A stretch of DNA of 64,000 bases from Cellvibrionales bacterium (GTDB lineage: Bacteria; Pseudomonadota; Gammaproteobacteria; Pseudomonadales; JAHEIH01). The stretch is from assembly GCA_024639455.1 (NCBI GenBank), contig JAHEIH010000004.1, positions 161,371-225,370 on the forward strand, given 5' to 3'. Both the position numbers and the translations under genes were made by a program. The notes beneath the pieces were generated by a model. It searched no databases. It saw only the letters and a program-made list of their open reading frames with translations, and was not told where the DNA came from. Shown piece after piece: positions 36,676 through 59,547 of the stretch (positions within the stretch are counted from its first letter, which is position 1; every line of letters begins with the position of its first letter).

Positions 36676-36698
36676 GTTGTCTCCTAGCTTCAAAATCA

Positions 36699-40770: not shown

Positions 40771-41709
40771 TTAGTCAGTAAACGTTAACACGATGCGGCC
40801 ACGCATGCCGCCTAGTTCAGTGAGGCGGTGGCCTTCTTCAGCGTCGCGGAAGTTCAAGGATTGCGCCACGCGCGGTACCAAACCGCCGCTGCTAATCAAG
40901 TCAGCGATGCGTTGCATCGTAGCGGTGTCCAACATGCCTTTCATCACAGAGACATTCAACACGCGCAGGCGTTCGTCTTCGATTTTGTAATTGCCGCGTA
41001 GCGACACGATACCGCCGCCATCTTTTACTAGGTGAGAGATTTGTTGCCCGATCAGCGCGCCGTCGATGACGCCGTCGACGCCCTCGGGGTAGGCATTGCG
41101 CAGCGCTTCTTCTAATCCAGCATCACGTGGCAATATAACGTCGGCACCGAGGCCTTCTACTAATGTGCGATCCTTGTCAGCGACGTTAGCGAGCACGGTC
41201 AATCCGGCAGCTTTTGCCAATTGGATGGCAGAGCCTCCTAGCATACCCGCGCCGCCGGTCACCATAAGAGTTTGGCCTGGCTGTAATGCCAAAAAGTCGA
41301 GCGACAGTGCGGCAGTCAAGGCATTCATGGGCACAGTAGCAGCACCGGCGAGATCGGTATCGGTCGACACGGTAGCAACCGAGGCCGCCGGGACTTTAAT
41401 GATTTGTGCGTACGAACCACCACTGGGAGTGCGCGGGTTGATCACACCGATGACGGGTTGTCCAATCTGTAACGACGAAGTGCCGGGGTCGAGAATGGTG
41501 CCCGAAAACTCCATGCCGGCGATGTAGGGGGGTGTCAGGTCGGTCATCAACGGGGCTTGGGTGCCGTTGCGCATCATCACGTCGGTGGGGTTGACGGTGG
41601 AGGCGGTCACTTTTACCAATACCTCGTCTGGGCCTGCCACGGGGGTGGGCATATCGGTAATGGTGAGAACCTCGGGGCCGCCGAATTCGTTGAAGGTCAC
41701 TGCTTGCAT
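40771..41709 (-). CDS. MDR-superfamily NAD(P)H quinone oxidoreductase / enoyl reductase-like
   Basis: MQAVTFNEFGGPEVL..., the NPTD motif and GQTLMVTGGAGMLGGSAIQLAK. The start at 41709 avoids overlap with the upstream gene. Confidence 0.8.
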   Translation of the reverse strand: MQAVTFNEFGGPEVLTITDMPTPVAGPDEVLVKVTASTVNPTDVMMRNGTQAPLMTDLTPPYIAGMEFSGTILDPGTSSLQIGQPVIGVINPRTPSGGSYAQIIKVPAASVATVSTDTDLAGAATVPMNALTAALSLDFLALQPGQTLMVTGGAGMLGGSAIQLAKAAGLTVLANVADKDRTLVEGLGADVILPRDAGLEEALRNAYPEGVDGVIDGALIGQQISHLVKDGGGIVSLRGNYKIEDERLRVLNVSVMKGMLDTATMQRIADLISSGGLVPRVAQSLNFRDAEEGHRLTELGGMRGRIVLTFTD

Positions 41710-41722
41710 GTTGGGTATCCTT

Positions 41723-42337
41723 TTAAGGGTTGTTACTGCCAAAAAACGCGAGGTATTTTTCGCGCCGGGCGCTGTCGACCAGGAGCGGTCTGTCGTAGGA
41801 AGGGTCGTTGCGATCGCGCGATGGGCCACGCCCCTCGTTCATAAATTGTTTTTCAGCTGCGCTCAGCAGGTGGGCGGTAGACGTCATGCTGCTGAGATCG
41901 TCAATGTTGGGGATGTGGTCTAGGTTAGACCAGTCACGCAGGGTGACTCGCGCAGCAATGCGCCACTCGCCGTCGCGTTTTTCGAGTCGGTCGATGTAGC
42001 GACCGCCGCCAATGGTCAATGGTTTGCCGCGTCGGTTCATGGCGGTAAACATGAAGTAGGTTTCACAGTGGGCGGTGTCACCCTCTAGTTCACAGCTGTG
42101 GTTAAGCAGGCAGTGCTGATGAGATTGCTGCGCATGACTGTGCATGTCTAGTGCCCAGTCGACAAACTCCTTGGCATTGCCGACAAACTTGCCGTGTTCA
42201 TCGATACAGTCTGGGTGGAAGGCTGACAAAATCAGTTCACGGTCGAATCGATCGACACCGCGAGCATAGCGGTGCAAGCACTGACGTATCTTTTCGCGAT
42301 CCCACAATTCCTGGATCATTTCTTCACTACTAGGCAT
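41723..42337 (-). CDS. NTF2-like (SnoaL_4-type) protein, paralogue A
   Basis: Shares RYARGVDR.D..L....FH.D..D.H, ETYF and GRYIDRLEKRDGEWRI with two other ORFs in this window. Confidence 0.75.
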   Translation of the reverse strand: MPSSEEMIQELWDREKIRQCLHRYARGVDRFDRELILSAFHPDCIDEHGKFVGNAKEFVDWALDMHSHAQQSHQHCLLNHSCELEGDTAHCETYFMFTAMNRRGKPLTIGGGRYIDRLEKRDGEWRIAARVTLRDWSNLDHIPNIDDLSSMTSTAHLLSAAEKQFMNEGRGPSRDRNDPSYDRPLLVDSARREKYLAFFGSNNP

Positions 42338-42348
42338 GGCGCTGTACT

Positions 42349-43527
42349 CTAAATTATCGCGCTGCTTTTCAGCGCTTCGATCTCATCTGGGCTAAAGCCG
42401 TAATCAGCGAGGATTTCCTCGCTGTGCTCGCCTAATAATGGCGGGCGCGACAACGCTACCGAACCCTGTGATAGTCGCGCTGGCGGCGGCACGATGGGGA
42501 CAGGGTAGGAGTCAGGGAAGGGAACGTCAGACATAAATGTGTCGCGCAGGCCGAGTGAGTTACCCATGACTTCTTGGGGTGACAGCACAGGGCCACAACC
42601 GATGTTGGCATCACTCAGAATCTGGATACACTCATCGCGATGTTTGTCGGCACACCAGGCTTGCATGATGGCACTGAGCTCTTCGCCGTGCTCGCCGCGC
42701 GTGTCGTCGCTGGCGAAGCGAGGGTCTTCTAATAAATCGGGGCGACCGATGAGCTTGCACCAACGCACAAAGACTTTCTGTCCGATCACTTGCATGATGA
42801 ACCAGCCATCGCGCGCGCGGAAGATATCCGACGGGCTCGACATCGGGCTACGGTTGCCGGTGGGCTCACGGTGACGGAAGCCAGTGGCTTCCTCCATCAG
42901 AATTTGGTTGGTGATGTTGAGGGAGGTGCCCACCAATGACGCCTGCACATGGCTGCCTTCACCGTTGCGCATTTTGCCAATGATGGCGGCCAGGGTGCCG
43001 TAGGCGAGTGATAATGAAGTGGAAAAGTCGATCGGTGCGGTGGCAGCACGGGTCGGTTTGCCCGGTTCACCGGTGAGATAAATCGCCCCGCTGACCGCCT
43101 GGCCAACGCCGTCGAAGCCAATCTTTTCCGACATAGGACCCTCGGTCCCATAGGCGGTTGCGGTGGTCAAGATAATATCGGGTTTGATGGCCTTTAATGT
43201 GTCGTAATCCAAACCAAAGTGTTTAAGTGCGCTGGGGGAATAGTTGGCGATCACGACATCGGCTTGGGCGATCATACGGCGCATCACCTCACGGCCCTCT
43301 GCTGAGGTCATGGCCAGTGATAGGCAACGCTTGCCACCGTTGCACTGCAGGTACTGGGCACCTTCGCCGTGTGCCGTTACCGGCATCAAAAAACGATCGT
43401 CTTCGCCCTTAGGGCGTTCCACTCGAATCACGTCAGCGCCAAAACTGGCCAGAATATGCGCGCAGTAGGGACCAGCTATCCAGCGTCCGAAATCAAGTAC
43501 CTTGATACCTTCTAAAATGCCGTTCAT
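42349..43527 (-). CDS. family III (CaiB/BaiF) CoA-transferase, paralogue A
   Basis: N-terminus LEGIKVLDFGRWIAGPYCAHILASFGADVIRVE. Start at the ATG at 43527 (a GTG at 43533 is also open). Confidence 0.85.
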   Translation of the reverse strand: MNGILEGIKVLDFGRWIAGPYCAHILASFGADVIRVERPKGEDDRFLMPVTAHGEGAQYLQCNGGKRCLSLAMTSAEGREVMRRMIAQADVVIANYSPSALKHFGLDYDTLKAIKPDIILTTATAYGTEGPMSEKIGFDGVGQAVSGAIYLTGEPGKPTRAATAPIDFSTSLSLAYGTLAAIIGKMRNGEGSHVQASLVGTSLNITNQILMEEATGFRHREPTGNRSPMSSPSDIFRARDGWFIMQVIGQKVFVRWCKLIGRPDLLEDPRFASDDTRGEHGEELSAIMQAWCADKHRDECIQILSDANIGCGPVLSPQEVMGNSLGLRDTFMSDVPFPDSYPVPIVPPPARLSQGSVALSRPPLLGEHSEEILADYGFSPDEIEALKSSAII

Positions 43528-43536
43528 GGTCACGCC

Positions 43537-44916
43537 TTAGTTACTGGGTATTAACAGACGGGTGATGTCCCTTACCGCGCTATCGGGCTGCATTTTATCG
43601 ACTAAACCAAATAGACGCTCGGACTGCTCGCGGCCGATGACGCCCTCGGTTAGTTCAAACAGCTTCAGCTCGTGTTCGCCCTCTTTGTAGGGTTTCAATG
43701 GTGAGCCCTTGGCACGTTCTTCAAAGCAATGCGCGTGGCTGCCATCTTTGAAGTGCAGTGTTACATCGGCGACAAAGTAGGGGTATTTGTCCAGTTCAGG
43801 ATCGACAGTCAGCTTCATGCGTTTAGTCATAGCCAAGGCTTCGCTGCCTTCCGACAGGTCGAGAATGCCGTCCATGAAGTCTTTGTGCGATCGATAGCCG
43901 TTGCCAAGCCCCATCACGGCGAGCGCCATTTGCGCAGGCAGAGAGTACTGCAGTTCTTCAATGTTACGCGGCTGATAGATCTGGGTGTTGCGAGTGCCGA
44001 CGATGCTGTCAGCCATGGTTTGCAGCTTCACGTCGACCCACTCGATGTCGTCGGCTCTGTCACGGTATTTTTCCATCGCTTCGATGAAAGGGAAGGTGCC
44101 GGCGCAGCAGCAGTAAGGCTTGAATGACAAGCCGGGCATGAAGTTAGGTGCGCTGGGCGCAAAAGCAGCGAGTGCTTCTTCATCGACGGTTTTACCGGCG
44201 AACTGCTTGTAAAGGCCGCGGTCGCCCGTCAACCACTTGCGGGGGCCGGTGATACCGGCCTTGGCCAATTGAGCCGCTTCGATACCGTTGCGGACACAAA
44301 TACCGGCATGGATGCGTTTAATTGAGCCGCCGGTCGAGGCGTACTCAGTAGGGCCGCTAAGGTGACTTAAGGCAATCGCCAGGGCATTGAACGTTTGCTC
44401 TTCATCCAATTTAAGTAATTTGGCGGCAATCGCGGCGCTGCCAAAGTTGCCAAACAGCGCGTGTGGTTGCCAACCGCGGTTTAACACTTCGGGTGAGGCG
44501 AAACGACCGATACGCACGTAGGTTTCATAGCCAACGACAAGGGCTACCATGGTTTCCTCAAGAGTCGCACCCGTCTCTTCACCTAACGCGAAGGCGGCGG
44601 GAACCACGGCACAGCCGGGGTGGGCATTGTCGAAAAAATCATCGTATTCAAAACCATGGCCATAGCTAGCGTTTAGATAGGCCGCTTCCACTGCGGTGGC
44701 TTTGGTGTGCTCGCCTACAATGGTGGCGACGCCGGGGTGGGGGTTTCTAAATTCACGCGTTTTGACCGACCAAGGGAGTGATTGTGCCCCTATCATGATG
44801 GCAAACTGGTCTTTAATCAGCGACTTGAGTGAGGCGCGAGTGGCGTTGTCGATATCAGACGACTGGTAGTCAACGACAAAGCGTGCGACGGCGCGTTCGA
44901 GGCTGTTATTTTCCAT
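43537..44916 (-). CDS. MmgE/PrpD-family protein (2-methylcitrate dehydratase / cis-aconitate decarboxylase superfamily)
   Basis: 459 aa. Family-typical N-terminal regions ...FVVDYQSSDIDNATRASLKSLIKDQFAIMIGA... and ...ASYGHGFEYDD.... Confidence 0.75.
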   Translation of the reverse strand: MENNSLERAVARFVVDYQSSDIDNATRASLKSLIKDQFAIMIGAQSLPWSVKTREFRNPHPGVATIVGEHTKATAVEAAYLNASYGHGFEYDDFFDNAHPGCAVVPAAFALGEETGATLEETMVALVVGYETYVRIGRFASPEVLNRGWQPHALFGNFGSAAIAAKLLKLDEEQTFNALAIALSHLSGPTEYASTGGSIKRIHAGICVRNGIEAAQLAKAGITGPRKWLTGDRGLYKQFAGKTVDEEALAAFAPSAPNFMPGLSFKPYCCCAGTFPFIEAMEKYRDRADDIEWVDVKLQTMADSIVGTRNTQIYQPRNIEELQYSLPAQMALAVMGLGNGYRSHKDFMDGILDLSEGSEALAMTKRMKLTVDPELDKYPYFVADVTLHFKDGSHAHCFEERAKGSPLKPYKEGEHELKLFELTEGVIGREQSERLFGLVDKMQPDSAVRDITRLLIPSN

Positions 44917-47494: not shown

Positions 47495-48283
47495 ATGTTA
47501 AAGCAGTACGCGCATTTTCCCATGCGCTTCGAGCGCCACCAAGATGGCGTGCTAGAAATGATTTTTGACGGCCCCAACCTAAATGCCGTCGACGAACACG
47601 TGCACCGTGAGCTGGCTAACGTGTGGCATGTTATCGAAAATGATCCCGAGACCCGCGTGGTGTTAGTACGTGGTGAAGGGCGTGCCTTTTCTGCTGGTGG
47701 CAGCTTTGAATTAATCGAAGACCAGATCCGCGATCACCGCGTGTTGATGCGCGTATTGAAAGAAACGCGCGCGCTGGTTTACAACATGATCAACTTCCCC
47801 AAACCCGTCATTTCCGCCATTCACGGCCCCGCGGTAGGCGCCGGTTTAATAGTGGCAATGCTGTCGGATATCCAGATCGCTGCTAAAAACGCGGTGATTC
47901 TCGATGGCCACACGCGCTTAGGTGTGTGTGCTGGCGACCACGCGGCGATGGTGTGGCCACTGTTGTGCGGTATGTCTAAAGCGAAGTACTACTTGATGAC
48001 CTGCGACAAGTTGAGCGGCGAAGAAGCCGAGCGCATTGGGCTAGTATCTCGCTGCACGGAAGACGACGAGTTACTTTCCACTGCGCGCGATGTGGCTGGT
48101 CGACTGAGCAACGGTGCGCAAGAGGCGCTGCATTACACCAAGCACTCGATGAACAACTGGTATCGCCAAAACATCGGTATCTTTGAGGCATCGCTGGGCT
48201 ACGAATTCCTCAACTTTGGCGGTGACGAAGTAAAAGAGGGGTTGGCGTCGCACCAGGAGCGCCGTCCGCCTAAGTTCGTTTAA
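47495..48283 (+). CDS. enoyl-CoA hydratase/isomerase (crotonase) family
   Basis: Crotonase oxyanion segment [26 protein letters not shown]. Confidence 0.85.
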
Positions 48284-48343
48284 AACATCTACATTGTGGC
48301 GGGCGGCACTTGGGTCCGGTTCGCCATCGACAGGAAAATAACA

Positions 48344-49237
48344 ATGCAATTAATGCGGTCGATTTTATTTGTTCCGGGTCACCGTCGCGGCTGGCCAGAA
48401 AAAGCCGTTGCCAAAGGCGCCGACGGTGTCTTTCTCGATTTGGAAGACTCGGTACCCAACGACATGAAAGTGGCAGCGCGCGATATCGTCGCCGAATCCA
48501 TCGCCACACTCGCTAACAGTGCGCGCAAGGTGGGAATATACGTGCGTCTTAACGCGCTCGAAACCGGCATGACCGGTGATGACATTGAAAAGGTGTTAGT
48601 GCCAGGGCTAAACGGCTTCTTGCTCCCCAAAATTTATAGCCCTCGGGACGTCATTAGCCTTGATGCGCTGGTGACTCACTACGAGCGTCGCAACGGTGTG
48701 GCAGCCGGGACGATTGAGTTCATTATTCCTCTCGAAACGGCGCAAGCCTTCGGATGTTGCGAAGATCTGATCGCTGCTTCACCCCGCGTAGCCACCTTGT
48801 TCGCTGGCACCGCGAAAGACGCGGACGTATCGCGCTCGGTGGGCTTTCAGTTCACCCCGCAAGGTTTGGAAACCCTCTATATGCGCAGCCGCGCCCTGTT
48901 GGCGGTGCGCGCCGCGGGTCTGCAATTCCCGCTAGTAGGCCTGTGGCAAGACCTCAAAGATGAAGCCGGTGCTATCGCCTTTTACCAGCAAAACCGCGAA
49001 CTGGGCTTCCGCGGTCAGGTCATGATTCACCCCGCGCACATCGAATTGGTCAACAAAATCTATTCGCCCTCGGCGGAGGATGTGGCGTTTTACTCAGGTA
49101 TGATCGACGCTTTTGAGGAAGCGGAAGCGCGCGGCATTGCTGCGGTGGAATACGAGGGGCAGCACATCGATTATGCCCACGTGAAAACCGCCCGCGAAGT
49201 GATAGAACTGCACCGTCAATTGACGGCCTCGCACTAA
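48344..49237 (+). CDS. HpcH/CitE-like acyl-CoA lyase (citramalyl/malyl-CoA lyase type), paralogue A
   Basis: RSILFVPGHRRGWPEKAVAKGADGVFLDLEDSV is the CitE N-terminal signature. The ATG at 48344 follows AGGA. Confidence 0.8.
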   Translation: MQLMRSILFVPGHRRGWPEKAVAKGADGVFLDLEDSVPNDMKVAARDIVAESIATLANSARKVGIYVRLNALETGMTGDDIEKVLVPGLNGFLLPKIYSPRDVISLDALVTHYERRNGVAAGTIEFIIPLETAQAFGCCEDLIAASPRVATLFAGTAKDADVSRSVGFQFTPQGLETLYMRSRALLAVRAAGLQFPLVGLWQDLKDEAGAIAFYQQNRELGFRGQVMIHPAHIELVNKIYSPSAEDVAFYSGMIDAFEEAEARGIAAVEYEGQHIDYAHVKTAREVIELHRQLTASH

Positions 49238-49257
49238 CGAATCCATAGGAGAAAAGC

Positions 49258-49731
49258 ATGCCCGGTTTGTACTTTGAAGAATTAGAGCCAGGACTGGTGG
49301 TAGAGCACGCCATCCGCCGCACCGTTACCGAGACCGATAACGTGTTGTTCTGTTCAATGACCCTTAACACCGCCGCGCTGCATATCGACCATGAATACGC
49401 TAAGACCACGCCGTATGGTCAGGTGCTGGTCAACAGCCTGTTTATTCTCGGTTTGGTGACCGGCATTACCGTGCCCGACACCACGCAAGGTACCACGCTC
49501 GCCAACCTAGGGTTTGAGGATGTGAAGTTCCCTAAGCCGGTGTTTGTGGGTGATACGATTCATGTCCGTACCGAAGTTGAGTCTAAACGTGTGTCTAAAA
49601 GCCGCGAAGATGCGGGTATCGTGTTTTTCCGTCACTTCGGTATTAACCAGCGCGACGAGATTATCTGCGATTGTAAACGCGCAGGCTTGATGTTGAAAAA
49701 GTCCTGGGTCGATGCCCAAGCGAAGGCCTAA
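49258..49731 (+). CDS. MaoC-like (R)-specific enoyl-CoA hydratase, single hot-dog
   Basis: 157 aa with a MaoC dehydratase pattern (...LHIDHEYA...GDTIHV...). Confidence 0.8.
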   Translation: MPGLYFEELEPGLVVEHAIRRTVTETDNVLFCSMTLNTAALHIDHEYAKTTPYGQVLVNSLFILGLVTGITVPDTTQGTTLANLGFEDVKFPKPVFVGDTIHVRTEVESKRVSKSREDAGIVFFRHFGINQRDEIICDCKRAGLMLKKSWVDAQAKA

Positions 49732-49746
49732 GCGAGAGAGTGAATC

Positions 49747-51732
49747 ATGCTAGGACAAGCGGTTTTTGGCGACTCTGACAAGGCGGTATGGATTCCAGGT
49801 CCCGAGCACATTGCGCGCAGTCAATTGGCCGCAGCGATGCAGCGCTGGGGCTTTGACAGTCTAGCAGCATTTCACCGCGCCTCGGTGGATCAGCCCGAGT
49901 GGTTTTGGCCGGCGGCGGCAGTCGATTTGGAGGTAATCCTCAAGGGAGAGCGCCACGCAGTATGCGATGAACGCCACGGCCGCTTATTCCCTCAGTGGTT
50001 CAGCGGGCAAACGTTTAACGCCGCTTGGAGTTGTATCGAGCGCCACGCGGCGGATCCCAGTATGGCCGCTAAAGCGGCGGCGATTTATGAAGGCGACGAC
50101 GGCCAGCAGCGTAGCATGAGCTACGCCGAACTCGGTGTCGAAGTGGAACGTTTTGCTTCAACCTTAGTGCGTCTTGGTATCAAGCAGGGCGATCGTGTGT
50201 CGATGTTTATGCCGCCGGTACCTGAAGCCTCGGTCGTGGTATTGGGTTGTGCGAAGATCGGTGCGGTGGTCGTACCGGCGTTTTCGGGCTACGGCAGCGA
50301 GGCGCTAGCGAGTCGTCTGCAGGCGGCTGAAGTCTCTTTATTGGTGACAGTGGATAGTACCACTCGTCGCGGTAAACGCATCGACATGCAAGACATCGCG
50401 GTAGACGCTATGGCACTGTCGCCATCGGTGCATAGTTTGTTGGTATTACAGCACGGTGGCGGTGATATCGAACTAAAGGATAGTCGCGACCACGACTGGC
50501 ACATGGCGCTTTCGCACCCTGACAACACGCCGGTGGCGACCGTCGATCTCGACCCCAATCATCCGCTGTTTATCATTTATACCTCCGGTACCACTGGGGC
50601 GCCCAAGGGCATTGTCCACTCCCACTTTGGTTATCTGTTTAAGGCCGCCATCGATTTTGGTTACGCTTTTGACATCAACCGCGACGATGTCGTCACTTGG
50701 ATCACCGACATGGGCTGGAACCTCGGTCCGCTGATGATCATCGGCGGTTACCACCTTGGTGCCACTATGGTGTTTGTGGAAGGTGTGCCCGACTACCCAA
50801 AGACCGAGCGTCTGTGGCAGATCGTTGAGCGACACGGTTCGACCTTCCTGGGGGTTGCCCCGACCGCTGCGCGTGGCCAGAGGGTAGCGCTGAATGACGG
50901 TTCACCTGCGGCGGATATTTCCACGCTTCGCGCGTTCGCCTCGACCGGCGAAGCGTGGGATGAACCCTCGTGGTGGTGGCTGTTTGACACGGTGGGCCAG
51001 AAGCGCTTGCCGATTATCAACTATACCGGCGGCACCGAAGTCGGCGGTGGTATTTTGTCGTGCTACACCATTGCACCCCAGTCGCCAGCCTCGTTCAGTG
51101 GCCCCTTGCCGGGCATGGATGTGGATGTTTTCGATGCCGACGGCCGTCGTACCAACGACATTGGTGAGCTGGTGTTATTGAATACCTGGCCCGGCATGGC
51201 GCACAGCTTTTGGCGCGACGATCAGCGCTTCTTGGATACCTACTGGGAGCGTTGGGATAACGTCTGGGTGCACGGCGATTTGGCCAGTGTCGATGGCGAC
51301 GGCTTCTGGTACATTCGCGGCCGCTCGGATGACACCTTGAAAATTGGTGGACGACGTGTCGGTCCGGCGGAGATCGAGTCGGCGCTTACTGCTCTCGACG
51401 GTGTGGCTGAAGCAGCGGTGATCGGAGCGCCCGACGACATTCGTGGTATGAAAATCATCGCCTTTGTGGTGGCTCGCCCTGGCGTGACATTGACCGAGCA
51501 GGCAGTTTCCGCCGGCGTGATGGCCAAGCTTGGCAAGGGCATGACGCCGAGCCAAATTAGCGTGGTCGACGCACTACCCAAAACCAAAAATGGCAAGATT
51601 ATGAGGCGCGCGATTCGCGCCCGTTATCTCGGTCAGACGTGCGGCGATATGTCGGCGCTCGACCCTGCGACGCCGTTGGAATGCATCCCAACCATCGCAC
51701 CCGAAACGAATACAGCAATAACAAGTAATTGA
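49747..51732 (+). CDS. AMP-forming acyl-CoA synthetase (acetyl/acetoacetyl-CoA synthetase-like)
   Basis: AMP-binding motif YTSGTTGAPKG. ACS-type N-terminal domain. C-terminal PKTKNGKIMRR. Confidence 0.85.
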   Translation: MLGQAVFGDSDKAVWIPGPEHIARSQLAAAMQRWGFDSLAAFHRASVDQPEWFWPAAAVDLEVILKGERHAVCDERHGRLFPQWFSGQTFNAAWSCIERHAADPSMAAKAAAIYEGDDGQQRSMSYAELGVEVERFASTLVRLGIKQGDRVSMFMPPVPEASVVVLGCAKIGAVVVPAFSGYGSEALASRLQAAEVSLLVTVDSTTRRGKRIDMQDIAVDAMALSPSVHSLLVLQHGGGDIELKDSRDHDWHMALSHPDNTPVATVDLDPNHPLFIIYTSGTTGAPKGIVHSHFGYLFKAAIDFGYAFDINRDDVVTWITDMGWNLGPLMIIGGYHLGATMVFVEGVPDYPKTERLWQIVERHGSTFLGVAPTAARGQRVALNDGSPAADISTLRAFASTGEAWDEPSWWWLFDTVGQKRLPIINYTGGTEVGGGILSCYTIAPQSPASFSGPLPGMDVDVFDADGRRTNDIGELVLLNTWPGMAHSFWRDDQRFLDTYWERWDNVWVHGDLASVDGDGFWYIRGRSDDTLKIGGRRVGPAEIESALTALDGVAEAAVIGAPDDIRGMKIIAFVVARPGVTLTEQAVSAGVMAKLGKGMTPSQISVVDALPKTKNGKIMRRAIRARYLGQTCGDMSALDPATPLECIPTIAPETNTAITSN

Positions 51733-51741
51733 GGATTTCGC

Positions 51742-52902
51742 ATGGCTTCCAATGCCTTTGACTTAGATATGATTCGCACCAACGCGCGCGCCTTGGCCGA
51801 CCAGTTCGGCGACAAATACTGGGCTGACGCCGACAAGCATAAGAAATATCCGTGGGAATTTATTCGTGCTTTTGCCGACAACGGCTGGCTGGGAGTGACC
51901 ATGCCCGAGGAGTACGGCGGTATTGGTCTGGGATTGACCGAGGCGGGCGTGATCTTACACGAGATTGGTGAGTCCGGCGGCGGCCACAGCGGCGCATCGG
52001 CCTTCCAATACTACGTATTTCCGCCGGGGCCAATTATCCACCACGGCTCGGAAGAGATGAAGCGCGAATACCTGCCTAAGCTGGCTAGTGGTGAAATCAT
52101 GATGTGCTTTGGCGTGACCGAGCCAGACTGTGGCGTCGATACCTCGCGTATCAAAACCTTTGCCAAAAAAGTCGGCGATCGCTGGATCATCAACGGCCAG
52201 AAGGTGTGGATCTCCAACGCGCAGAACGCCGACCGCATCCTGCTGCTGACCCGCACCTCGCCGCGCAACGACGAGCGCCCCTTCGACGGTATGACCCTAT
52301 TCTTCTGCGACCTCGACCGGACCCGCGTGAAGGTGAATCGCATCGAAAAATTGGCGCGTAACTGCATCGACTCTAATGAACTGTTTATTGAAAACCTCGA
52401 AGCCCGCGATGAAGACGTCGTGGGCGAAGTCGGGCAGGGCTTTAAGTGTCTCATTGATGGCTTAAACCCAGAGCGCATTGCGGTGGCTTTCGCACAGATT
52501 GGTACCGGTCGTGCCGCCTTGAATAAGGCTGTACAGTACGCCAAAGAGCGCGTGGTATTCGACCGCGCTATTGGTAAAAATCAAGCCATTGCCCACCCCT
52601 TGGCGGACTCCTATATTCGCCTGCGCAGCGCCGAGTTGATGGCGTTTGAAGCGGCGCGCAAATTCGATGCGGGGCTACCTTGTGGGGAGGAGTCCAACGC
52701 GGCAAAATTCTTGGCCACCGAAGCTGCCTTTCAGGCGGCCGACCGTGCCATGCAAACCCTTGGTGGTTATTCCTACGCGCTTGAGTACCACGTTGAACGC
52801 TACTGGCGCGAAACCCGCCTGTTGAAAATCGCGCCGGTATCGCAAGAGATGGTGTTGAACTATGTGTCGCAGCGGATCTTAGATCTGCCGCGCTCTTACT
52901 AG
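51742..52902 (+). CDS. acyl-CoA dehydrogenase
   Basis: 386 aa, canonical ACAD length and motifs (...CFGVTEPDCGVD..., ...GGYSYALEYHVERYWRE...). Confidence 0.9.
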   Translation: MASNAFDLDMIRTNARALADQFGDKYWADADKHKKYPWEFIRAFADNGWLGVTMPEEYGGIGLGLTEAGVILHEIGESGGGHSGASAFQYYVFPPGPIIHHGSEEMKREYLPKLASGEIMMCFGVTEPDCGVDTSRIKTFAKKVGDRWIINGQKVWISNAQNADRILLLTRTSPRNDERPFDGMTLFFCDLDRTRVKVNRIEKLARNCIDSNELFIENLEARDEDVVGEVGQGFKCLIDGLNPERIAVAFAQIGTGRAALNKAVQYAKERVVFDRAIGKNQAIAHPLADSYIRLRSAELMAFEAARKFDAGLPCGEESNAAKFLATEAAFQAADRAMQTLGGYSYALEYHVERYWRETRLLKIAPVSQEMVLNYVSQRILDLPRSY

Positions 52903-52913
52903 GGATAAGTGCC

Positions 52914-54125
52914 ATGAGAGACGCTGTTGTCTGTGAACCCATTCGAACCGCTGTAGGTGGTTACGGCGGTGTATTTAAAGACCTCGCGGCGGTGCAGTTG
53001 GCCGAGACAGTGTTGCGCGCTTTGATTACGCGCACCCAACTGGACCCTGCCCTGATCGACGACGTTATTTTTGGGCAGTGCTATCCCAACGGTGAGGCCC
53101 CTGCCATCGCGCGCGTCGCGGCGCTGGATGCAGAGTTGGGTATTCAGGTACCCGGCCTGCAAATTGACCGTCGTTGTGGCTCGGGTCTGCAGGCAGTGAT
53201 TGATGCTTCGATGCGCGTGCAAACCGGTGTGGCGGATCTCGTGATTGCCGGTGGCGCCGAGAGCATGAGCCAAGCTGAGCACTATATCCTCGGTGGGCGC
53301 TTTGGCATTCGTGGCGACTCGACGCCGATGTGGGATCGCATTGCTCGCGGTCGCATCACCTCGGGCGGGCGCCATCACCCCGTGGCCGGCGGCATGCTTG
53401 AAACCGCTGAAAACCTGCGCCGCGATTACAGTATCAGTCGCGAAGAACAGGACGAGCTCGCTCTGCGGTCGCAGCAACGCGCCGCAGCGGCTATGAATAA
53501 TGGTGTGTTTGCCGAAGAAATCGTGCCGGTAGAGGTCAACACCCGCAAGGGGGCGATAAGCGTCGACAAAGACGAGCATCCGCGCCCTGAGACAAGCATG
53601 GAAACACTGGCGAGTTTGCGCCCAGTGCGACTTAAGGTCGACGCCGAGGCCACGGTAACCGCCGGCAACGCCAGCGGGCAGAACGATGGCGCCGCGGCGT
53701 GTATTGTCACTACCCCAGACGTCGCTGCGAAATACGGTCTGCGTCCCTACGGACGACTCGTCAATTGGGCGGTAGCGGGTGTTGAACCTGGGCGCATGGG
53801 TATTGGCCCTGTGCCGGCGACACAAAAGGTGTTGCAGCGCACTGGTTTGACGTTGGCTGACATGGATTTAATTGAACTAAATGAGGCCTTTGCCGCACAG
53901 GTATTAGCGTGTACTAAGGCGCTCAACTTCCAAGCGGGCGACTACGACCGCATGAACGTTAACGGCTCGGGTATCTCGCTGGGTCACCCGGTAGGTGCCA
54001 CCGGAGTGCGTATTTTGGCGACAATGTTACGCGAATTGGATCGTCGCCAGGGTCGCTATGGCTTAGAAACCATGTGTATCGGTGGCGGGCAGGGTTTGGC
54101 CGCTATCTTTGAACGCATGGCTTAG
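52914..54125 (+). CDS. acetyl-CoA C-acyltransferase (thiolase)
   Basis: Active-site Cys region IDRRCGSGLQAV and C-terminal CIGGGQGLA. Confidence 0.9.
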   Translation: MRDAVVCEPIRTAVGGYGGVFKDLAAVQLAETVLRALITRTQLDPALIDDVIFGQCYPNGEAPAIARVAALDAELGIQVPGLQIDRRCGSGLQAVIDASMRVQTGVADLVIAGGAESMSQAEHYILGGRFGIRGDSTPMWDRIARGRITSGGRHHPVAGGMLETAENLRRDYSISREEQDELALRSQQRAAAAMNNGVFAEEIVPVEVNTRKGAISVDKDEHPRPETSMETLASLRPVRLKVDAEATVTAGNASGQNDGAAACIVTTPDVAAKYGLRPYGRLVNWAVAGVEPGRMGIGPVPATQKVLQRTGLTLADMDLIELNEAFAAQVLACTKALNFQAGDYDRMNVNGSGISLGHPVGATGVRILATMLRELDRRQGRYGLETMCIGGGQGLAAIFERMA

Positions 54126-54134
54126 GAGTTGACG

Positions 54135-55358
54135 ATGTATCCACTACTGAGCGGATTAAAGGTCGTCGAGTGTGCTTCTTTCATCGCCGGCCCCTCCTGT
54201 GCTTTGCATATGCAGCAATTGGGCGCCGAAGTGATTCGTATCGATCCCATTGGCGGAGGGCCAGACTTCAAGCGGTGGCCGATCACCGAGCAGGGTAACA
54301 GCCTCTATTGGGAAGGTCTCAATAAGGGTAAGCAGTCGGTGGCGATCGACCTTTCGTCTCCCGAGGGACGCGAACTGGCGATTCGCTTAATCACGGCCCC
54401 CGATCCCAACGGCGGTATTTTCGTCACCAATTTTCCCGCTAAGGGTTTCTTGTCCCATGATGCTCTGCGCAAACATCGCGAAGACTTGATCACGGTTCGG
54501 GTGATGGGCTGGCGTGATGGTGAGACCGCGGTGGACTATACCGTTAACGCCGCTATTGGTGTGCCCTATATGACGGGATCTAGCGCCAATGGTGATCAGC
54601 CTGTCAATCATGTGCTCCCCGCCTGGGACCTTATGACAGGCGCCTATGCGGCCTTTGCTACACTCGCCGCTGAGCGCCATCGCCGTTTGACAGGGCAGGG
54701 GCAGGAAGTGACGATCCCTCTCTCCGATGTTGCCATTGCCTCGCTTGGTCATATGGGTAATATTGCCGAGGTACTGGCCGAGGGCGATCGCCCCCGTGTT
54801 GGGAACGCACTGTATGGTGCTTTTGGGCGCGACTTTACCACCGCCGATCAGCGCGTGGTGATGATTACTGCCATTACCTCCAGGCAGTGGAACGGATTAT
54901 TGCAATCGCTCGACTTAGTCGATGCGGTGGCCGCCGTGGAAGCCGAGTTGAGTGTTTCTTTTAAGCGAGACGAAGGTCTTCGCTATACCCACCGCGATCG
55001 GCTCTTCCCGCTGGTTGAAGCGGCTGTCGCGCAGGCAACCTTCGACGATCTCAAAAGCCGTTTCGCCAAAAATGGTGTCTGCTGGGCGCCCTATCGAACA
55101 CTTTCCGATGCGCTGTTAAACGAGCCACGTCTCTCGGTGGATGGCCCCATTTTTGATGCCAATGTAAGCCACCCCAGTGGCCGAAGCTATCCTGCACCAG
55201 GTGCCGCGGCAAGTTTCAGTGCTATGGATCGCACTCCCGTGCAGGGTGCGCCCCGCATGGGTGCCCATACCGAGCAAGTATTAGCCGAACAGTTGGGTAT
55301 GTCGTCCTCGGAAATTGCCGCCCTGTTCGATGCTGGCACCGTGGCCAGTGAAAAATAA
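54135..55358 (+). CDS. family III (CaiB/BaiF) CoA-transferase, paralogue B
   Basis: LSGLKVVECASFIAGPSCALHMQQLGAEVIRID. The ATG at 54135 is 6 nt after AGGAG (the ORF-track TTG at 54129 is unlikely). Confidence 0.85.
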   Translation: MYPLLSGLKVVECASFIAGPSCALHMQQLGAEVIRIDPIGGGPDFKRWPITEQGNSLYWEGLNKGKQSVAIDLSSPEGRELAIRLITAPDPNGGIFVTNFPAKGFLSHDALRKHREDLITVRVMGWRDGETAVDYTVNAAIGVPYMTGSSANGDQPVNHVLPAWDLMTGAYAAFATLAAERHRRLTGQGQEVTIPLSDVAIASLGHMGNIAEVLAEGDRPRVGNALYGAFGRDFTTADQRVVMITAITSRQWNGLLQSLDLVDAVAAVEAELSVSFKRDEGLRYTHRDRLFPLVEAAVAQATFDDLKSRFAKNGVCWAPYRTLSDALLNEPRLSVDGPIFDANVSHPSGRSYPAPGAAASFSAMDRTPVQGAPRMGAHTEQVLAEQLGMSSSEIAALFDAGTVASEK

Positions 55359-55374
55359 TGATTAGGAAATAGCT

Positions 55375-57021
55375 ATGTCAGAGCGTGATTTTATTCAGCA
55401 TTTATCCAGTATCCAGTCAGCGGTGCGCGAGGTGGAAAAAGCCACCCGTGATGCTATTCTCAGCCGCTGTAGCCGAGAGGGAAAAATCCAGTCAGGCTTA
55501 TTAAACGAGCACCAACGAGCCCTACATGGCTTGGCGTGGATGACGACCACGGTGGAGGCCATTGTGCGCGCCGCGCAATGGGGTATTAAACTTCACGAGG
55601 TGAACAAACTGACAACGTTAGAGCGCTTGGTGCTCACCGTGGGTATTGGCGAATACCTGCAGCAAATGGCATTCGGGCTGCCAATGTCGCAGAGTGAGGT
55701 GGTGCGTCCACACGAACTGGGCATTCAAGAGGCGATCGCGTCGCTGCAATGCACCCCCTCCTTTATTTGGTTACAAGAGCAGGGTAGCGATATCGCCACC
55801 CGCCGAGAGATCGTGGCGCTGTATCGTGACGGCAACCCGCTGTGCGAGACGGTGTTCGATGAAGAGCTCGACATGGTGCGTGAGCAGTTCCGCCGTTTCA
55901 CTGACAATGAAATTACCCCCTACGCCCACCACTGGCACATGGCCGATGAACTCATCCCCGATGAGGTGGTGGCAAAGCTAGCTGAGCTCGGTGTATTCGG
56001 TATCTGTATTCCCGAGCAGTACGAAGGTCTTGGTATGGGTAAGCGCGCCATGTGTATCGTTACCGAGGAACTCAGTCGCGGTTACATAGGTACCGGTTCG
56101 CTTGGTACCCGTTCGGAAATAGCCGGTGAGCTAATTCTTAGCGCAGGTACCGAACAGCAAAAGGCATATTGGTTGCCCAAAATCGCCAGCGGTGAAGTGC
56201 TGCCTACAGCGGTATTTACCGAGCCAGACACCGGTTCAGACCTCGCCTCGTTGCGCACCCGTGCCAGTCAGCGCGACGATGGTACGTGGCAGATTGACGG
56301 CAATAAAACCTGGATTACCCACGCCGCACGCAGCGATTTAATGACCTTACTGGCGCGCAGCGAGCCCGACGAAAAAGGCCACGACGGATTGAGTATGTTT
56401 CTGGCGCCCAAGCAGCGCGGCAATTGCGAACATCCCTTTCCCAGCGAGGGCATGGACGGTGGCGAAATTCGCGTGCTGGGTTACCGTGGCATGAAGGAGT
56501 ACGAAATATCTTTTGATGCGTTCAATATTCCTGCTGACGCGGTGCTTGGTGGTACACGAGGGCAAGGCTTCCGCCAGTTGATGCAAACCTTTGAGGGGGC
56601 ACGTATTCAAACGGCCGCCCGTGCAGTGGGGGTGGCTTGGCGCGCGTTCGATCTGGCTTGGAAATACGCTAACGATCGCAAGCAATTTGGCAAGCCCATC
56701 GTCGAATTTCCTCGTGTGGCCGACAAGTTGGCGCTGATGCTGGCAGAGATCGTGATGGCGCGCGAGGTGACCTACTACGCCGCCGAGGAAAAAGAGCGTG
56801 GCCATCGCTGCGATATCGAAGCGGGTATGGCGAAATTGATTGCCGCGCGGGTTGCTTGGAGCAACGCCGATCAAGGCTTACAGGTGCATGGTGGCAACGG
56901 CTACGCTGAAGAGTTCGAGATAAGTCGCGTGCTGTGCGATGCTCGCATTTTAAATATTTTTGAAGGGGCGGCAGAGATTCAAGCCCAAGTGATCGGCCGC
57001 GGCCTGCTGTCGCGCGCGTAA
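55375..57021 (+). CDS. acyl-CoA dehydrogenase with an N-terminal extension of about 165 aa (methylsuccinyl-CoA dehydrogenase-like architecture)
   Basis: The canonical ACAD core starts near EELDMVREQFRRFTDNEITPYA. The preceding ~165 residues have no counterpart in the 386-aa ACAD at 51742. Confidence 0.8.
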   Translation: MSERDFIQHLSSIQSAVREVEKATRDAILSRCSREGKIQSGLLNEHQRALHGLAWMTTTVEAIVRAAQWGIKLHEVNKLTTLERLVLTVGIGEYLQQMAFGLPMSQSEVVRPHELGIQEAIASLQCTPSFIWLQEQGSDIATRREIVALYRDGNPLCETVFDEELDMVREQFRRFTDNEITPYAHHWHMADELIPDEVVAKLAELGVFGICIPEQYEGLGMGKRAMCIVTEELSRGYIGTGSLGTRSEIAGELILSAGTEQQKAYWLPKIASGEVLPTAVFTEPDTGSDLASLRTRASQRDDGTWQIDGNKTWITHAARSDLMTLLARSEPDEKGHDGLSMFLAPKQRGNCEHPFPSEGMDGGEIRVLGYRGMKEYEISFDAFNIPADAVLGGTRGQGFRQLMQTFEGARIQTAARAVGVAWRAFDLAWKYANDRKQFGKPIVEFPRVADKLALMLAEIVMAREVTYYAAEEKERGHRCDIEAGMAKLIAARVAWSNADQGLQVHGGNGYAEEFEISRVLCDARILNIFEGAAEIQAQVIGRGLLSRA

Positions 57022-57046
57022 TGGCGATACCCCACAGGAGAAAACA

Positions 57047-57796
57047 ATGGATTTAGGCATTCAGGGCAAAGTCGCCATCATTACCGGTTCAGGCCGAGGC
57101 TTGGGGGCGGCCACCGCCCATAAATTGGCTAGCGAAGGCTGCAGCGTGGTGATTACCGATATCGTTGCGGAACGGGTTGAGCAAACCACCGCAGCGTTAA
57201 AGGCTGAAGGGTTTAGCGCGCACGGCATTGTGGCGGACATTACTAAGGCCGATCAGGTCAAAGCACTGGTCGACGAGACCATCGCCACCTTTGGTTCGAT
57301 CGATATCTTGGTCAACAACGCAGGTTCACCACGCGATAAATTTTTGGTCAAAATGTCGGAAGACGATTGGGATTTCGTCATCGACGTGATGCTAAAAGGG
57401 GCCTTTTTTGCCAGCCGCGAAGTGGTACCGCACATGATGCAACAGGGCTGGGGGCGTATCGTTAATCTCAGTTCGCGCGCCCATTTTGGCAACCCCACCC
57501 AAGCTAACTATTCCACCGCCAAGGCGGGCTTAATCGGGCTGGCCAAGGCGTTGTCGCTGGAAGAGGGCAAGTTTAATATTACCGTCAATTGCGTAGCGCC
57601 CGGTTTCATCGAATCGGAAATGGTCCAGGCTTTAGATACCTACGAAATCATTAAAGAACGTGCATTGAAAGTGCAGCCGGTAAAGCGCCCCGGTACTCCG
57701 GAAGATGTGGCCGATGCCATCGCCTTTTTGGCCAGCGAGCGCGCCGGATTTATTTCCGGTGAAGTGTTACATGTTTCCGGCGGTCGTTTTGGTTGA
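57047..57796 (+). CDS. SDR, FabG/3-hydroxyacyl-CoA dehydrogenase-like
   Basis: TGSGRGLGAATA, NNAG, YSTAKAG. Confidence 0.85.
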   Translation: MDLGIQGKVAIITGSGRGLGAATAHKLASEGCSVVITDIVAERVEQTTAALKAEGFSAHGIVADITKADQVKALVDETIATFGSIDILVNNAGSPRDKFLVKMSEDDWDFVIDVMLKGAFFASREVVPHMMQQGWGRIVNLSSRAHFGNPTQANYSTAKAGLIGLAKALSLEEGKFNITVNCVAPGFIESEMVQALDTYEIIKERALKVQPVKRPGTPEDVADAIAFLASERAGFISGEVLHVSGGRFG

Positions 57797-57806
57797 GGAT
57801 GGTTAA

Positions 57807-58676
57807 ATGACAGACGCCATCACCCCTGAGGTTGTTGAACATCTGCAGCAGTGGCAGGGCAAGACCGAGCAATTCACCGAATTCATGGCCCCACAACCTA
57901 TGCTGCGTCTAGCGGCTACGCTCGAGAGCGCCGAAATTAGCGCAGTGGACGGCAGCGCAATACCGCCTCTATGGCACTGGATCACCTTCACGCCACTGGC
58001 CGCGCAAAGTGAGTTAGGCACGGATGGCCATCCTACATTGGGTGGCTTTATGCCACCGGTACCATTGCCGCGGCGCATGTGGGCGGGCGGGCGCTTGTAT
58101 TGGTATGGGCAGCTGCGACTCGGCGACGTGGTGGAAAAGACCACCACCATCCAGTCAATAAAGCACAAAGCTGGCCGCTCGGGGGATTTGGTATTTGCCT
58201 TATTGCAGCACGAGTACCGCCAGCAGGGCGCTTTAGTGTTACGTGAAGAGCAGGACATCGTTTACCGCGCCCCGGCCAAACCTGGTGACCCCGTACCGGG
58301 GCCAACACCAGCCCCCAACGATCCAACCTGGACAAAGACTGTCACACCGAGTTCCACCCTGTTGTTTCGCTATTCGGCGCTGACCTTTAATTCGCACCGC
58401 ATTCACTACGATCGCCCCTATGCCATGCAGGAAGAGGGCTACGGCGGTTTGGTGGTGCACGGCCCGCTGCTGGCTACGTTTTTGGGTGAACTGTTGCGCG
58501 AGAATATGCCACAGGCGAACATCGCCAGTTTTAGTTTTCGCGCGGTTCGACCTACGTTAGATACTCGCCCTTTTGAGGTGTGTGGGAAATTAGCCGCAGA
58601 TGGGCAATCAGCCACCATATGGAGCCAGGATCACGAGGGCTGGTTAACCATGCAGGCCGAGGTTACCTTCGGATAA
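57807..58676 (+). CDS. double hot-dog MaoC-family hydratase (itaconyl-CoA / mesaconyl-C4-CoA hydratase-like)
   Basis: 289 aa. An N-terminal FAS1-like dehydratase half (PPLWHW..F) plus a C-terminal hot-dog (YSALTFNSHRIHYD...GLVVHGPL). Confidence 0.65.
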   Translation: MTDAITPEVVEHLQQWQGKTEQFTEFMAPQPMLRLAATLESAEISAVDGSAIPPLWHWITFTPLAAQSELGTDGHPTLGGFMPPVPLPRRMWAGGRLYWYGQLRLGDVVEKTTTIQSIKHKAGRSGDLVFALLQHEYRQQGALVLREEQDIVYRAPAKPGDPVPGPTPAPNDPTWTKTVTPSSTLLFRYSALTFNSHRIHYDRPYAMQEEGYGGLVVHGPLLATFLGELLRENMPQANIASFSFRAVRPTLDTRPFEVCGKLAADGQSATIWSQDHEGWLTMQAEVTFG

Positions 58677-58691
58677 TTGAGAGAGATAACT

Positions 58692-59546
58692 ATGGCGATT
58701 GATATCGCAAACGCGCGCAGTTTTTTGTTTGTTCCGGCAACGCGCCCGGAGCGTTTTAGCAAAGCCTTGGAGAGTGGCGCCGATTGGGTGGTGATCGATC
58801 TTGAGGATGCTGTCGCCGCCGCTGACAAAGACCGTGCACGGGAAAATCTCGCTGACGGGTTCTCTGGGCTAAGCGCCGTGCAGCGCGCACGCGTATTAGT
58901 ACGTATCAACCCCACCGATAGCGAGTTTCACGACGCCGATTTAGCGCTGTTGGCGGTGTTGGTGGAAGAGGGTCTGCGCGCGGTGATGGTGCCCAAAGCA
59001 GCGGTGGCGGCGGAAATTCAGCGCATAGCCGATCGTCTTAGCGAAGACATTGAGGTGGTGGCTTTGGTGGAGTCGCTAGCGGGGGTAGATGCCTTGGATT
59101 ATCTAGCCAAACTACCTAGCGTGGTGCGCTTTGCCTTTGGTCATCTCGATTTTCAGGTCGATATGGGCATGAACTGCGATGCCGATGAGGAAGCCTTGAT
59201 CCCGGTTCGTTTTGCCATCGCGGCGGCATCTCGTCGCGCCAATATGGCGCCGCCCATCGATGGCGTAACCGTCGATACCAAAGACCTCAGCCTTATTCAA
59301 CGGCACATCGACCGAGCCTTGGGATTTGGTTTTGCGGGTAAGTTGTGTATTCATCCTGCCCAAGTGGGCACGGTTAATCGCGCCTTTACCCCTAGCCGAT
59401 CCGACATCGAATGGGCGCAACGAGTGGTGGCAGCTGACGCGCACGGCGGTGCGGTATTTAGTCTCGATGGCAAGATGGTCGACATGCCGGTAATCAGCAA
59501 GGCCAGGCACATCTTGGCAAAAGCGCAGAGTTTTGAGGAGGCCTAA
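58692..59546 (+). CDS. HpcH/CitE-like acyl-CoA lyase, paralogue B
   Basis: RSFLFVPATRPERFSKALESGADWVVIDLEDAV. Start at the ATG at 58692. Confidence 0.8.
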   Translation: MAIDIANARSFLFVPATRPERFSKALESGADWVVIDLEDAVAAADKDRARENLADGFSGLSAVQRARVLVRINPTDSEFHDADLALLAVLVEEGLRAVMVPKAAVAAEIQRIADRLSEDIEVVALVESLAGVDALDYLAKLPSVVRFAFGHLDFQVDMGMNCDADEEALIPVRFAIAAASRRANMAPPIDGVTVDTKDLSLIQRHIDRALGFGFAGKLCIHPAQVGTVNRAFTPSRSDIEWAQRVVAADAHGGAVFSLDGKMVDMPVISKARHILAKAQSFEEA

Positions 59547-59547
59547 T

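Follow-up and report, generated by a model that had tools for sequence, protein, structure and literature searches.

[quoted passage not shown] The module probably belongs, as its lower part, to a catabolic operon for the disposal of this ester, and its most likely role is the burning of the methyl-branched five-carbon acid left by chain shortening. We hold it slightly better than an even bet that Mcd, a subgroup of Mct with Pro at position 43, Ich and Ccl form an undescribed natural sink for methylsuccinyl-C1-CoA, which is widespread, is joined to several upper pathways (a thiolase, possibly a 2-oxo-acid dehydrogenase, and herbicide plasmids), and is contained here whole in a single operon, together with a conserved feeder for a branched or cyclic acid.

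Inspection of the sequence and its open reading frames indicated that all module genes (54135-59546) are encoded on the plus strand and lack internal stops, with ribosome-binding sites and intergenic gaps of 10-25 nt. The module does not stand alone: 9 nt before 54135 lies the end of a thiolase gene (PRK06205), and the module genes form the 3' part of a tightly packed, co-directional run of 12 genes (47495-60123), whose NTF2 gene lies just beyond the range quoted in the original prediction. An identical gene order was found on two independent metagenome contigs (L046 and L103), with protein identities of 84-99%. A scan for promoters and terminators gave no excess over shuffled sequence. The features are:

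40771..44916, minus strand: divergent MmgE/PrpD, family III CoA-transferase, SnoaL and MDR genes of the same island (orthologues at 47-58% in locus L084)
47495..52902, plus strand: putative feeder genes lying upstream in this run, with gaps of 9-60 nt, assigned by family profiles: crotonase PRK07327, a second CitE-type lyase, a single hot-dog MaoC protein (RipB/Ich-like), an acyl-CoA synthetase and a 386-aa acyl-CoA dehydrogenase (ACAD)
52914..54125, plus strand: thiolase of the PRK06205 subfamily, the proposed source of methylsuccinyl-CoA (NF004853, 680.6 bits, cut-off 551)
54135..55358, plus strand: Mct-like family III CoA-transferase, 407 aa (PDB 8APQ, E 2e-125)
55375..57021, plus strand: N-terminally extended Mcd-type ACAD, 548 aa (PDB 6ES9, E 8e-193)
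57047..57796, plus strand: SDR, probably an NAD-dependent 3-hydroxyacyl-CoA dehydrogenase feeding the thiolase (top PDB matches 2ET6 and 7PCS)
57807..58676, plus strand: Ich/Meh-type double hot-dog hydratase, 289 aa, predicted to convert mesaconyl-C4-CoA to (S)-citramalyl-CoA (PDB 8HUC, 8KHG)
58692..59546, plus strand: Ccl-type (S)-citramalyl-CoA lyase (CitE/HpcH), 284 aa from ATG, or 289 aa from an alternative TTG start at 58677 (PDB 8KHL/9NZB, E 5e-52)
59548..60123, plus strand: SnoaL_4/NTF2 protein, the last gene of the run (PF13577, E 2e-25)

By its residues and its clade, the long ACAD can be taken as a true Mcd of the Paracoccus type, in agreement with the original prediction, which had pointed to about 165 extra N-terminal residues; the Pfam core begins at residue 163 and leaves an extension of ~162 residues, against about 170 in the Mcd of the ethylmalonyl-CoA pathway. 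Identity to the Paracoccus denitrificans enzyme is 57% (253/381 residues of the core and 57/147 of the extension), and all Mcd active-site residues are retained (S248, R252, A285, F287, T320, R376, E380, T418, R421, F534, E535 and E117 in P. denitrificans numbering). The carboxylate arginines R252, R376 and R421 correspond to R246, R371 and R416, the methyl pocket A285/F287 to A279 and F281, the base E535 to E530, and Glu117 of the extension hairpin to E108. When the protein was placed in a quick tree with characterised Mcd, it fell in a 26-row clade with the P. denitrificans enzyme, apart from other ACADs (SH-aLRT 99). A fatty-acyl-type identity was rejected for this ACAD. The protein thus shares its extension, active site and clade with the Mcd of the ethylmalonyl-CoA pathway (EC 1.3.8.12; PDB 6ES9; PMC5798300), whereas its gene belongs to a catabolic operon and to an Mct-linked subclade. 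An alternative is that a different substituted succinyl-CoA (ethyl-, dimethyl- or larger) serves as substrate and yields another 2-oxo acid together with acetyl-CoA. In its favour, the island holds MmgE/PrpD as well as several CoA-transferases and two pairs of lyase and hydratase, the SDR resembles BbsD, an enzyme of benzylsuccinate breakdown, and the Mct subgroup deviates at the tunnel mouth. This seems quite unlikely, as the methyl pocket and all three carboxylate arginines are the same as in the highly specific Paracoccus enzyme.

By its sequence, the transferase is related to Mct, the enzyme that shifts CoA intramolecularly between C1 and C4 of mesaconyl-CoA, and is not Ict. Its PDB matches are the Mct structures 8APQ (E 2e-125) and 7XKG (E 1.4e-122), against E 1e-25 for the next family III match and at best 28.7% identity over 230 aa to other family III matches. 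The equivalog TIGR04253 for Mct (2-methylfumaryl-CoA isomerase) gave 428 bits, below its cut-off of 725, yet it was by far the top family. Alignment to characterised Mct indicated that R47, N100, F101, D135, Y136 and D165 are retained, the catalytic-type Asp165, Arg47 and Tyr136 of Mct being D165, R47 and Y135 in the transferase. The substitutions relative to Mct are L43P, R75S, R104K and R314G, E133 is also changed, and the differences include three CoA-binding residues. Position 43, at the tunnel mouth, is reported to be Leu or Ile in all intramolecular enzymes (PMC9813914), and the transferases with Pro43 appear to constitute a separate Mct subgroup that differs at this point. Pro43, the altered CoA-binding residues and the missed cut-off count against the route that we favour.

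An Ict orthologue was sought in the genome with the transferases of two Ich-linked clusters as stand-ins for PA0882, and only matches of 28-32% were obtained, the Mct-like gene not being among them. The assignment of this gene as Ict was rejected by sequence and tree, so that of the Ict/Ich/Ccl trio originally proposed the hydratase and the lyase stand, on their PDB matches, and the transferase does not. Since the enzyme belongs to the Mct family, entry is probably by a pre-formed CoA ester, and not by free methylsuccinate or itaconate as first suggested. If the transferase were instead intermolecular in the manner of Ict, it could use succinyl-CoA to activate a free acid (methylsuccinate, mesaconate or itaconate), and the remaining genes would be an itaconate/methylsuccinate cluster: the change of Leu43 to Pro and of CoA-binding residues could open the site, Ich and Ccl are both present, and succinyl-CoA synthetase or acetyl-CoA hydrolase/transferase elsewhere on the contig could activate itaconate, with itaconate use as a side activity. 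We regard this as unlikely, because the transferase retains Arg47, which occupies the gating-loop space, because intermolecular transfer by Chloroflexus Mct is slower by a factor of a million, and because Ict forms only the C4 ester, which Paracoccus-type Mcd refuses (PMC12290011).

The hydratase and the lyase are of the Pseudomonas Ich and Ccl types. The only PDB matches of the hydratase are the itaconyl-CoA hydratases 8HUC and 8KHG (E 5e-71 and 2e-70); the lyase matches 8KHL/9NZB (E 5e-52) and 3QLL (E 6e-40), and malyl-CoA lyases at just E 2e-25. Their genes are adjacent, and the combination is shared with the pseudomonadal itaconate/methylsuccinate cluster, although the lyase scored 177 bits with RipC_Ccl, under the cut-off of 375. 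Citrate lyase beta was rejected (CitE, 133 bits against a cut-off of 443). The upstream thiolase is part of the module: it bears the catalytic C-H-C motifs, and in seven loci (L001, L023, L024, L047, L048, L102 and L104) its orthologues (76-80%) sit immediately upstream of mct-mcd, or almost so. Further upstream, the order citE-maoC-acs-(acad)-thl-mct-mcd is retained at 64-76% in L001, L024 and L104. The second hydratase-lyase pair of the operon (MaoC, CitE) could be the true exit or work upstream, which would weigh against the proposed route.

The route may then be described as follows. The synthetase, the 386-aa ACAD, the hydratases and the second lyase would feed chain shortening by the SDR and the thiolase, leading to an ester of the 4-methyl-3-oxoadipyl-CoA type, which the adjacent thiolase would split into acetyl-CoA and (2S)-methylsuccinyl-C1-CoA. 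From family function, Mcd would oxidise the latter to mesaconyl-C1-CoA with electrons passing to ETF, the Mct-like enzyme (catalytic residues kept, Leu43 not) would shift CoA from C1 to C4, the hydratase would form (S)-citramalyl-CoA, and Ccl would release pyruvate and acetyl-CoA. The chemistry has no gap, since Mcd yields the C1 ester, Ich accepts the C4 ester (PMC12290011) and Mct is the known connector. In the mml pathway for 4-methylcatechol, thiolysis of 4-methyl-3-oxoadipyl-CoA gives methylsuccinyl-CoA, the type of substrate proposed here (PMC6449761); the window has no mml-like ring-cleavage genes, and that source is silent on the fate of the product.

Unlikely, in our view, is that the feeder yields methylsuccinyl-C4-CoA, or both esters, with the same end products. 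The Pro43 Mct would then also move CoA on the saturated ester, from C4 to C1 before Mcd and from C1 to C4 after it, or else from C1 to C4 with a short C4-type ACAD acting next. Bacteria that degrade phenoxy herbicides carry mct-mcd pairs on the plasmids pCADAB1, pSHV1 and pAKD34, and by our own derivation thiolysis in the MCPA route gives the C4 ester, but the authors of pCADAB1 did not link the pair to MCPA use, and we found no literature passage on it. The sphingomonad loci L011, L072 and L073 couple Mct with a short ACAD, a thiolase and Ich, without a long Mcd. Catabolism offers precedents for moving CoA within a saturated diacyl-CoA ester: with ThnP/ThnO (naphthalene) and IaaL (auxin; PMC11659651), CoA is on the wrong carboxyl after the thiolase step, and a transferase relocates it so that breakdown proceeds. 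These systems differ in that ThnP is of family I, the substrates are cyclohexyl- or phenyl-substituted and the pathways are anaerobic. The C4 entry would, moreover, require two substrates for one enzyme, and entry through the C1 ester remains our preferred reading.

The genome is 99.5% complete. No Ccr exceeded the cut-off, although control genomes gave signals, and no match to Ecm was found, the two mutases being an Mcm-type enzyme (IRQY, TIQND) and a 1204-aa fused form. A full-length Mch was not found by a protein query that detected it in controls; the profile PF19315 at E 1e-40 was dropped, since it was silent even in genomes known to hold Mch. Queries for Mcr, Pcs, Mcl and Mch from a full cluster (L030) gave only partial or distant matches (best Mcl 27%). 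The lack of Ccr, Ecm and Mch led us to reject a role in the ethylmalonyl-CoA pathway, and leaves the glyoxylate and propionyl-CoA exit of the original prediction unsupported, while its other products, pyruvate and acetyl-CoA, are likely. A 3-hydroxypropionate role was rejected for want of Mcr, Pcs, an Mcl orthologue and a full Mch. Carbon assimilation by either pathway (the bi-cycle in part), or a methylmalyl-CoA exit to glyoxylate and propionyl-CoA by way of MaoC (157 aa) together with the second CitE, is thus very improbable. MaoC aligns to half of Mch at 26-32%, the top, weak PDB match of the second CitE is a malyl-CoA lyase, and the genome encodes methylmalonyl-CoA mutase and malate synthase; but RipB/Ich is the sole NCBIfam match of MaoC, and a glyoxylate shunt already serves growth on acetate.

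The pair of Mct and Paracoccus-type Mcd is widespread, with 21 loci that include related, not independent, ones. Thiolase was present in 10 of these and absent from 11, Ich was found in only 5, Ccl in 3 and Mch in none (0/21); the scarcity of the first three at the same locus counts against the proposed route. Among 27 Mct-bearing genomes, long Mcd occurred in 22, Mch in 4, Ccr in 1 and Ich in 23, the last counted in Mct-bearing genomes only and common in Burkholderiales anyway. In Sphingobium herbicidovorans pSHV1, mct-mcd-ich-ccl is a four-gene run, and a Variovorax defluvii contig with thl-mct-mcd (L084) carries orthologues of the 40771..44916 island genes adjoining ich, ccl and the SDR gene.

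The original prediction regarded an Mcd-like enzyme linked to Ict/Ich/Ccl as a new combination; a catabolic, C4-specific methylsuccinyl-CoA dehydrogenase beside these genes has already been published, and the C1 ester was termed a dead end for that cluster (Gonner 2025; PMC12290011). The pseudomonadal cluster (P. aeruginosa PA0878-PA0883 and the C. necator operon; PMC12290011, PMC13491972) shares with the present operon the Ich and Ccl types, the catabolic conversion of methylsuccinyl-CoA to mesaconyl-CoA, and the products pyruvate and acetyl-CoA. There, however, Ict makes the C4 ester from the free acid, a short (RS)-C4 dehydrogenase acts, and the set includes a methylsuccinate isomerase, whereas the operon described here has no Ict orthologue, a long Mcd of the C1-specific type, an inserted Mct-like enzyme and a thiolase feed. 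The 3-hydroxypropionate bi-cycle (Chloroflexus 8APQ and Roseiflexus 7XKG; PMC9813914, PMC9196870) offers full-length homology and the same catalytic residues in Mct, and a C4 hydratase followed by citramalyl-CoA cleavage downstream, as proposed here; in the bi-cycle the C1 ester comes from Mch/Mcl and not from Mcd, and its Mct lies outside the Pro43 subgroup. No description of a natural Mcd-Mct-Ich-Ccl route was found in a literature search that mostly did not reach subscription papers, and the link of a C1-specific Mcd with Mct appears to be undescribed, each enzyme type being already known.

If the route is correct, methylsuccinyl-C1-CoA from thiolysis of methyl-branched diacids gains a sink, and Mcd and Mct, which are used as markers of assimilation pathways, would often be catabolic, with consequences for genome annotation. 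The four enzymes would be a natural module from C5 to pyruvate that could be used in designing synthetic carbon fixation. The Pro43 subgroup offers a test of the published 'cork-up' rule for Mct.

Ich-linked ACADs share 44-47% identity with the 386-aa ACAD, but it fell in a sister clade in the quick tree. For the NTF2 protein, Atlas and PDB searches found no characterised relative, and its single-sequence fold had a pLDDT of 51, too low to use; two paralogues lie within the island (41-43%). The best PDB matches of the SDR are a (3R)-hydroxyacyl-CoA dehydrogenase (2ET6) and BbsD (7PCS), an Asp ends its strand 2 (ITDIV), and orthologues at 70-76% occur in the related clusters L084, L101 and L104.

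The span 54135-59546 comprises five intact ORFs on the + strand, directly followed by an equally intact NTF2 gene. Together these form the tail of a 12-gene run with intergenic gaps of 1-60 nt, whose gene order is identical on two metagenome contigs of close relatives (L046 and L103):

47495-60123, + strand: crotonase, CitE-type lyase, 157-aa MaoC, acyl-CoA synthetase, 386-aa ACAD, thiolase, CoA-transferase, long ACAD, SDR, hydratase, lyase, NTF2

Judged by its sequence, the long ACAD is a (2S)-methylsuccinyl-CoA dehydrogenase (Mcd) of the Paracoccus type. It matches PDB 6ES9 (E 8e-193) and P. migulae Mcd (8CIW; 1e-85) and, relative to Paracoccus denitrificans Mcd, retains S248, R252, A285, F287, T320, R376, E380, T418, R421, F534, E535 and the hairpin E117 (active-site numbering from PMC5798300). 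Placed phylogenetically relative to characterised Mcd, it groups with the P. denitrificans enzyme at a support of 99 and, within this clade, belongs to an Mct-linked subgroup of Burkholderiales proteins. The original prediction that the N-terminally extended architecture is characteristic of Mcd holds. The gene is single-copy in the source genome. That the substrate is a different alkylsuccinyl ester is a main rival reading.

The CoA-transferase had been taken for the itaconate-degradation enzyme Ict, which does not hold: its best structural relatives are the Chloroflexus and Roseiflexus mesaconyl-CoA C1-C4 transferases (Mct; E 2e-125 and 1e-122), and the next family III enzyme reaches only 1e-25. 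Aligned to Mct, it retains Asp165, the catalytic residue, and Arg47 and Tyr136, which bind mesaconate (PMC9813914). Position 43, which is reportedly Leu or Ile in every enzyme that works intramolecularly (PMC9813914), is Pro; R75, R104, E133 and R314 are also changed, and TIGR04253 scores 428 bits, below its cut-off of 725. With the three residues kept, yet with Pro43 and this score, the protein closely resembles Mct in sequence while departing from it on two counts. In the tree it lies within a mostly Pro43 clade, separate from the Mct of proteobacterial 3-hydroxypropionate clusters. An intermolecular reaction is another main rival. Mcd of the Ala285 type accompanies Pro/Met43 Mct at 15 of 16 loci, and at 12 of 13 loci Leu/Ile43 Mct is found with Mcd of the Ile (P. 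migulae-like) type; these counts are not independent because they largely represent two lineages.

The Ich/Meh-like hydratase and citramalyl-CoA-lyase-like enzyme stand as predicted. PDB matches of the 289-aa hydratase are limited to itaconyl-CoA hydratase structures, and the lyase is nearest 8KHL/9NZB (E 5e-52), the Ccl of P. aeruginosa, with malyl-CoA lyases far more distant. The SDR is nearest (3R)-hydroxyacyl-CoA dehydrogenase and BbsD and carries the Asp typical of NAD use, and is probably a beta-oxidation dehydrogenase. Atlas and PDB searches found no characterised relative of the NTF2 protein. Three SnoaL_4 paralogues (41-43% identity) occur in the island, at 41723-42337, 46785-47384 and 59548-60123, with relatives also in Variovorax and Pseudorhodoferax clusters. 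A second lyase-hydratase pair lies at 48344-49731 (CitE and the 157-aa MaoC, RipB/Ich-like but below cut-off); in Burkholderiales loci it is linked to thl-mct-mcd more often than Ich/Ccl are. At 35656-37919, an ACAD adjoins an APH-type kinase, an arrangement that resembles the pairs acting on 4-hydroxyacyl-CoA, LvaA/LvaC or ACAD10/11.

Genome context rules out an assimilation role for the Mcd/Mct genes. In the source genome (2.88 Mb, 99.5% complete), no Ccr scored above cut-off, no full-length Mch was found (the same protein query was positive in four other genomes), and Mcl, Mcr and Pcs queries gave distant or partial matches only. Mesaconyl-C1-CoA made by Mcd would therefore have no known exit except through Mct, Ich and Ccl. 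The 717-aa mutase carries the Tyr and Gln characteristic of methylmalonyl-CoA mutase, and the other mutase is a fused protein of 1204 aa. The genome also encodes isocitrate lyase and malate synthase. Further acyl-CoA clusters lie elsewhere: in one (contig C12, 249900-256100), an acetyl-CoA hydrolase/transferase adjoins an ACAD with 45% identity to Ich-linked ACADs, and another (contig C25, 1-28000) contains a thiolase paralogue (67%) near ETF genes.

The most likely reading is that the thiolase frees (2S)-methylsuccinyl-C1-CoA; successive action of Mcd, Mct, Ich and Ccl would then yield pyruvate and acetyl-CoA. In the mml pathway, methylsuccinyl-CoA arises by thiolysis of 4-methyl-3-oxoadipyl-CoA (PMC6449761), and the structure makes the product the C1 ester. 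As a conjecture, the upstream ACAD-MaoC-CitE-synthetase set may perform a hydroxymethylglutaryl-type cleavage to a 3-oxo acid, followed by activation and thiolysis. Intramolecular CoA shifts following thiolysis are known from other pathways (PMC11659651). A further main rival is that Mct shifts CoA on methylsuccinyl-CoA as well.

The operon is real and, at the level of sequence, well supported as a new arrangement of known enzyme types. The "new combination" originally proposed survives in part: catabolic methylsuccinyl-CoA oxidation beside Ict/Ich/Ccl is already published (PMC12290011), while the literature searched contained no description of a natural Mcd-Mct-Ich-Ccl route. The published dehydrogenase is C4-specific and lies beside Ict, whereas here a Paracoccus-type Mcd accompanies an Mct-like transferase; its authors considered the C1 ester a dead end, and the ethylmalonyl-CoA enzyme the sole other such dehydrogenase (PMC12290011).

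Under GTDB taxonomy the host belongs to the Gammaproteobacteria, a class it shares with a Burkholderiales genome. Four congeners gave no match to Mct, Mcd or Ich, the run has 56.5% GC against 51.7% for the genome, and the nearest named relatives are Burkholderiales (66-70%); these features point to lateral gain without proving it. Directly past the NTF2 gene (60186-64000), GC drops from 56% to 44%, and three genes on the minus strand encode probable secreted proteins.

Mct-like genes occur in 18/301 genomes of one Burkholderiales family and 27/401 of the phylum. A selection of 27 genomes with Mct includes 22 that have a long Mcd, 23 with Ich, four with Mch and one with Ccr; at loci with Mct and Paracoccus-type Mcd (n=21), a close thiolase is found in ten, Ich in five, Ccl in three and Mch in none. 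A more extended arrangement, citE-maoC-acs-(acad)-thl-mct-mcd, is shared by Pseudorhodoferax, Variovorax defluvii and one metagenome contig; in V. defluvii, ich, ccl, SDR (76%) and prpD (58%) lie ~25 kb off on the same contig as thl-mct-mcd. Plasmid pSHV1 of S. herbicidovorans carries mct-mcd-ich-ccl alone, with pyruvate carboxylase nearby.

Pairs of mct-mcd are seen on the conjugative plasmids pCADAB1, pAKD34 and pSHV1 (L017, L018, L093); two of these plasmids come from sphingomonads that degrade phenoxy herbicides. Methylsuccinyl-CoA is the expected end point of MCPA breakdown, and its fate is not addressed in the passages of the ERG5 paper that were consulted. On an Azospirillum plasmid (L021, 3454-7911) and a Pseudorhizobium plasmid (L092, 17065-21527), a stand-alone 2-oxoglutarate dehydrogenase E1-like gene adjoins mcd, with mct nearby; a possible second feeder is oxidative decarboxylation of 3-methyl-2-oxoglutarate, which would yield methylsuccinyl-C1-CoA. 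Full-length Mch adjoins Mct, without Mcd, at L022, L038 and L051, possibly for reverse use, from the C4 ester via the C1 ester to methylmalyl-CoA. Four Burkholderiales genomes (L030, L034, L035, L037) carry an apparent 3-hydroxypropionate bi-cycle cluster of Mch, Mcl, Mct, two CoA-transferases and Meh, to which L030 adds Mcr- and Pcs-like genes.
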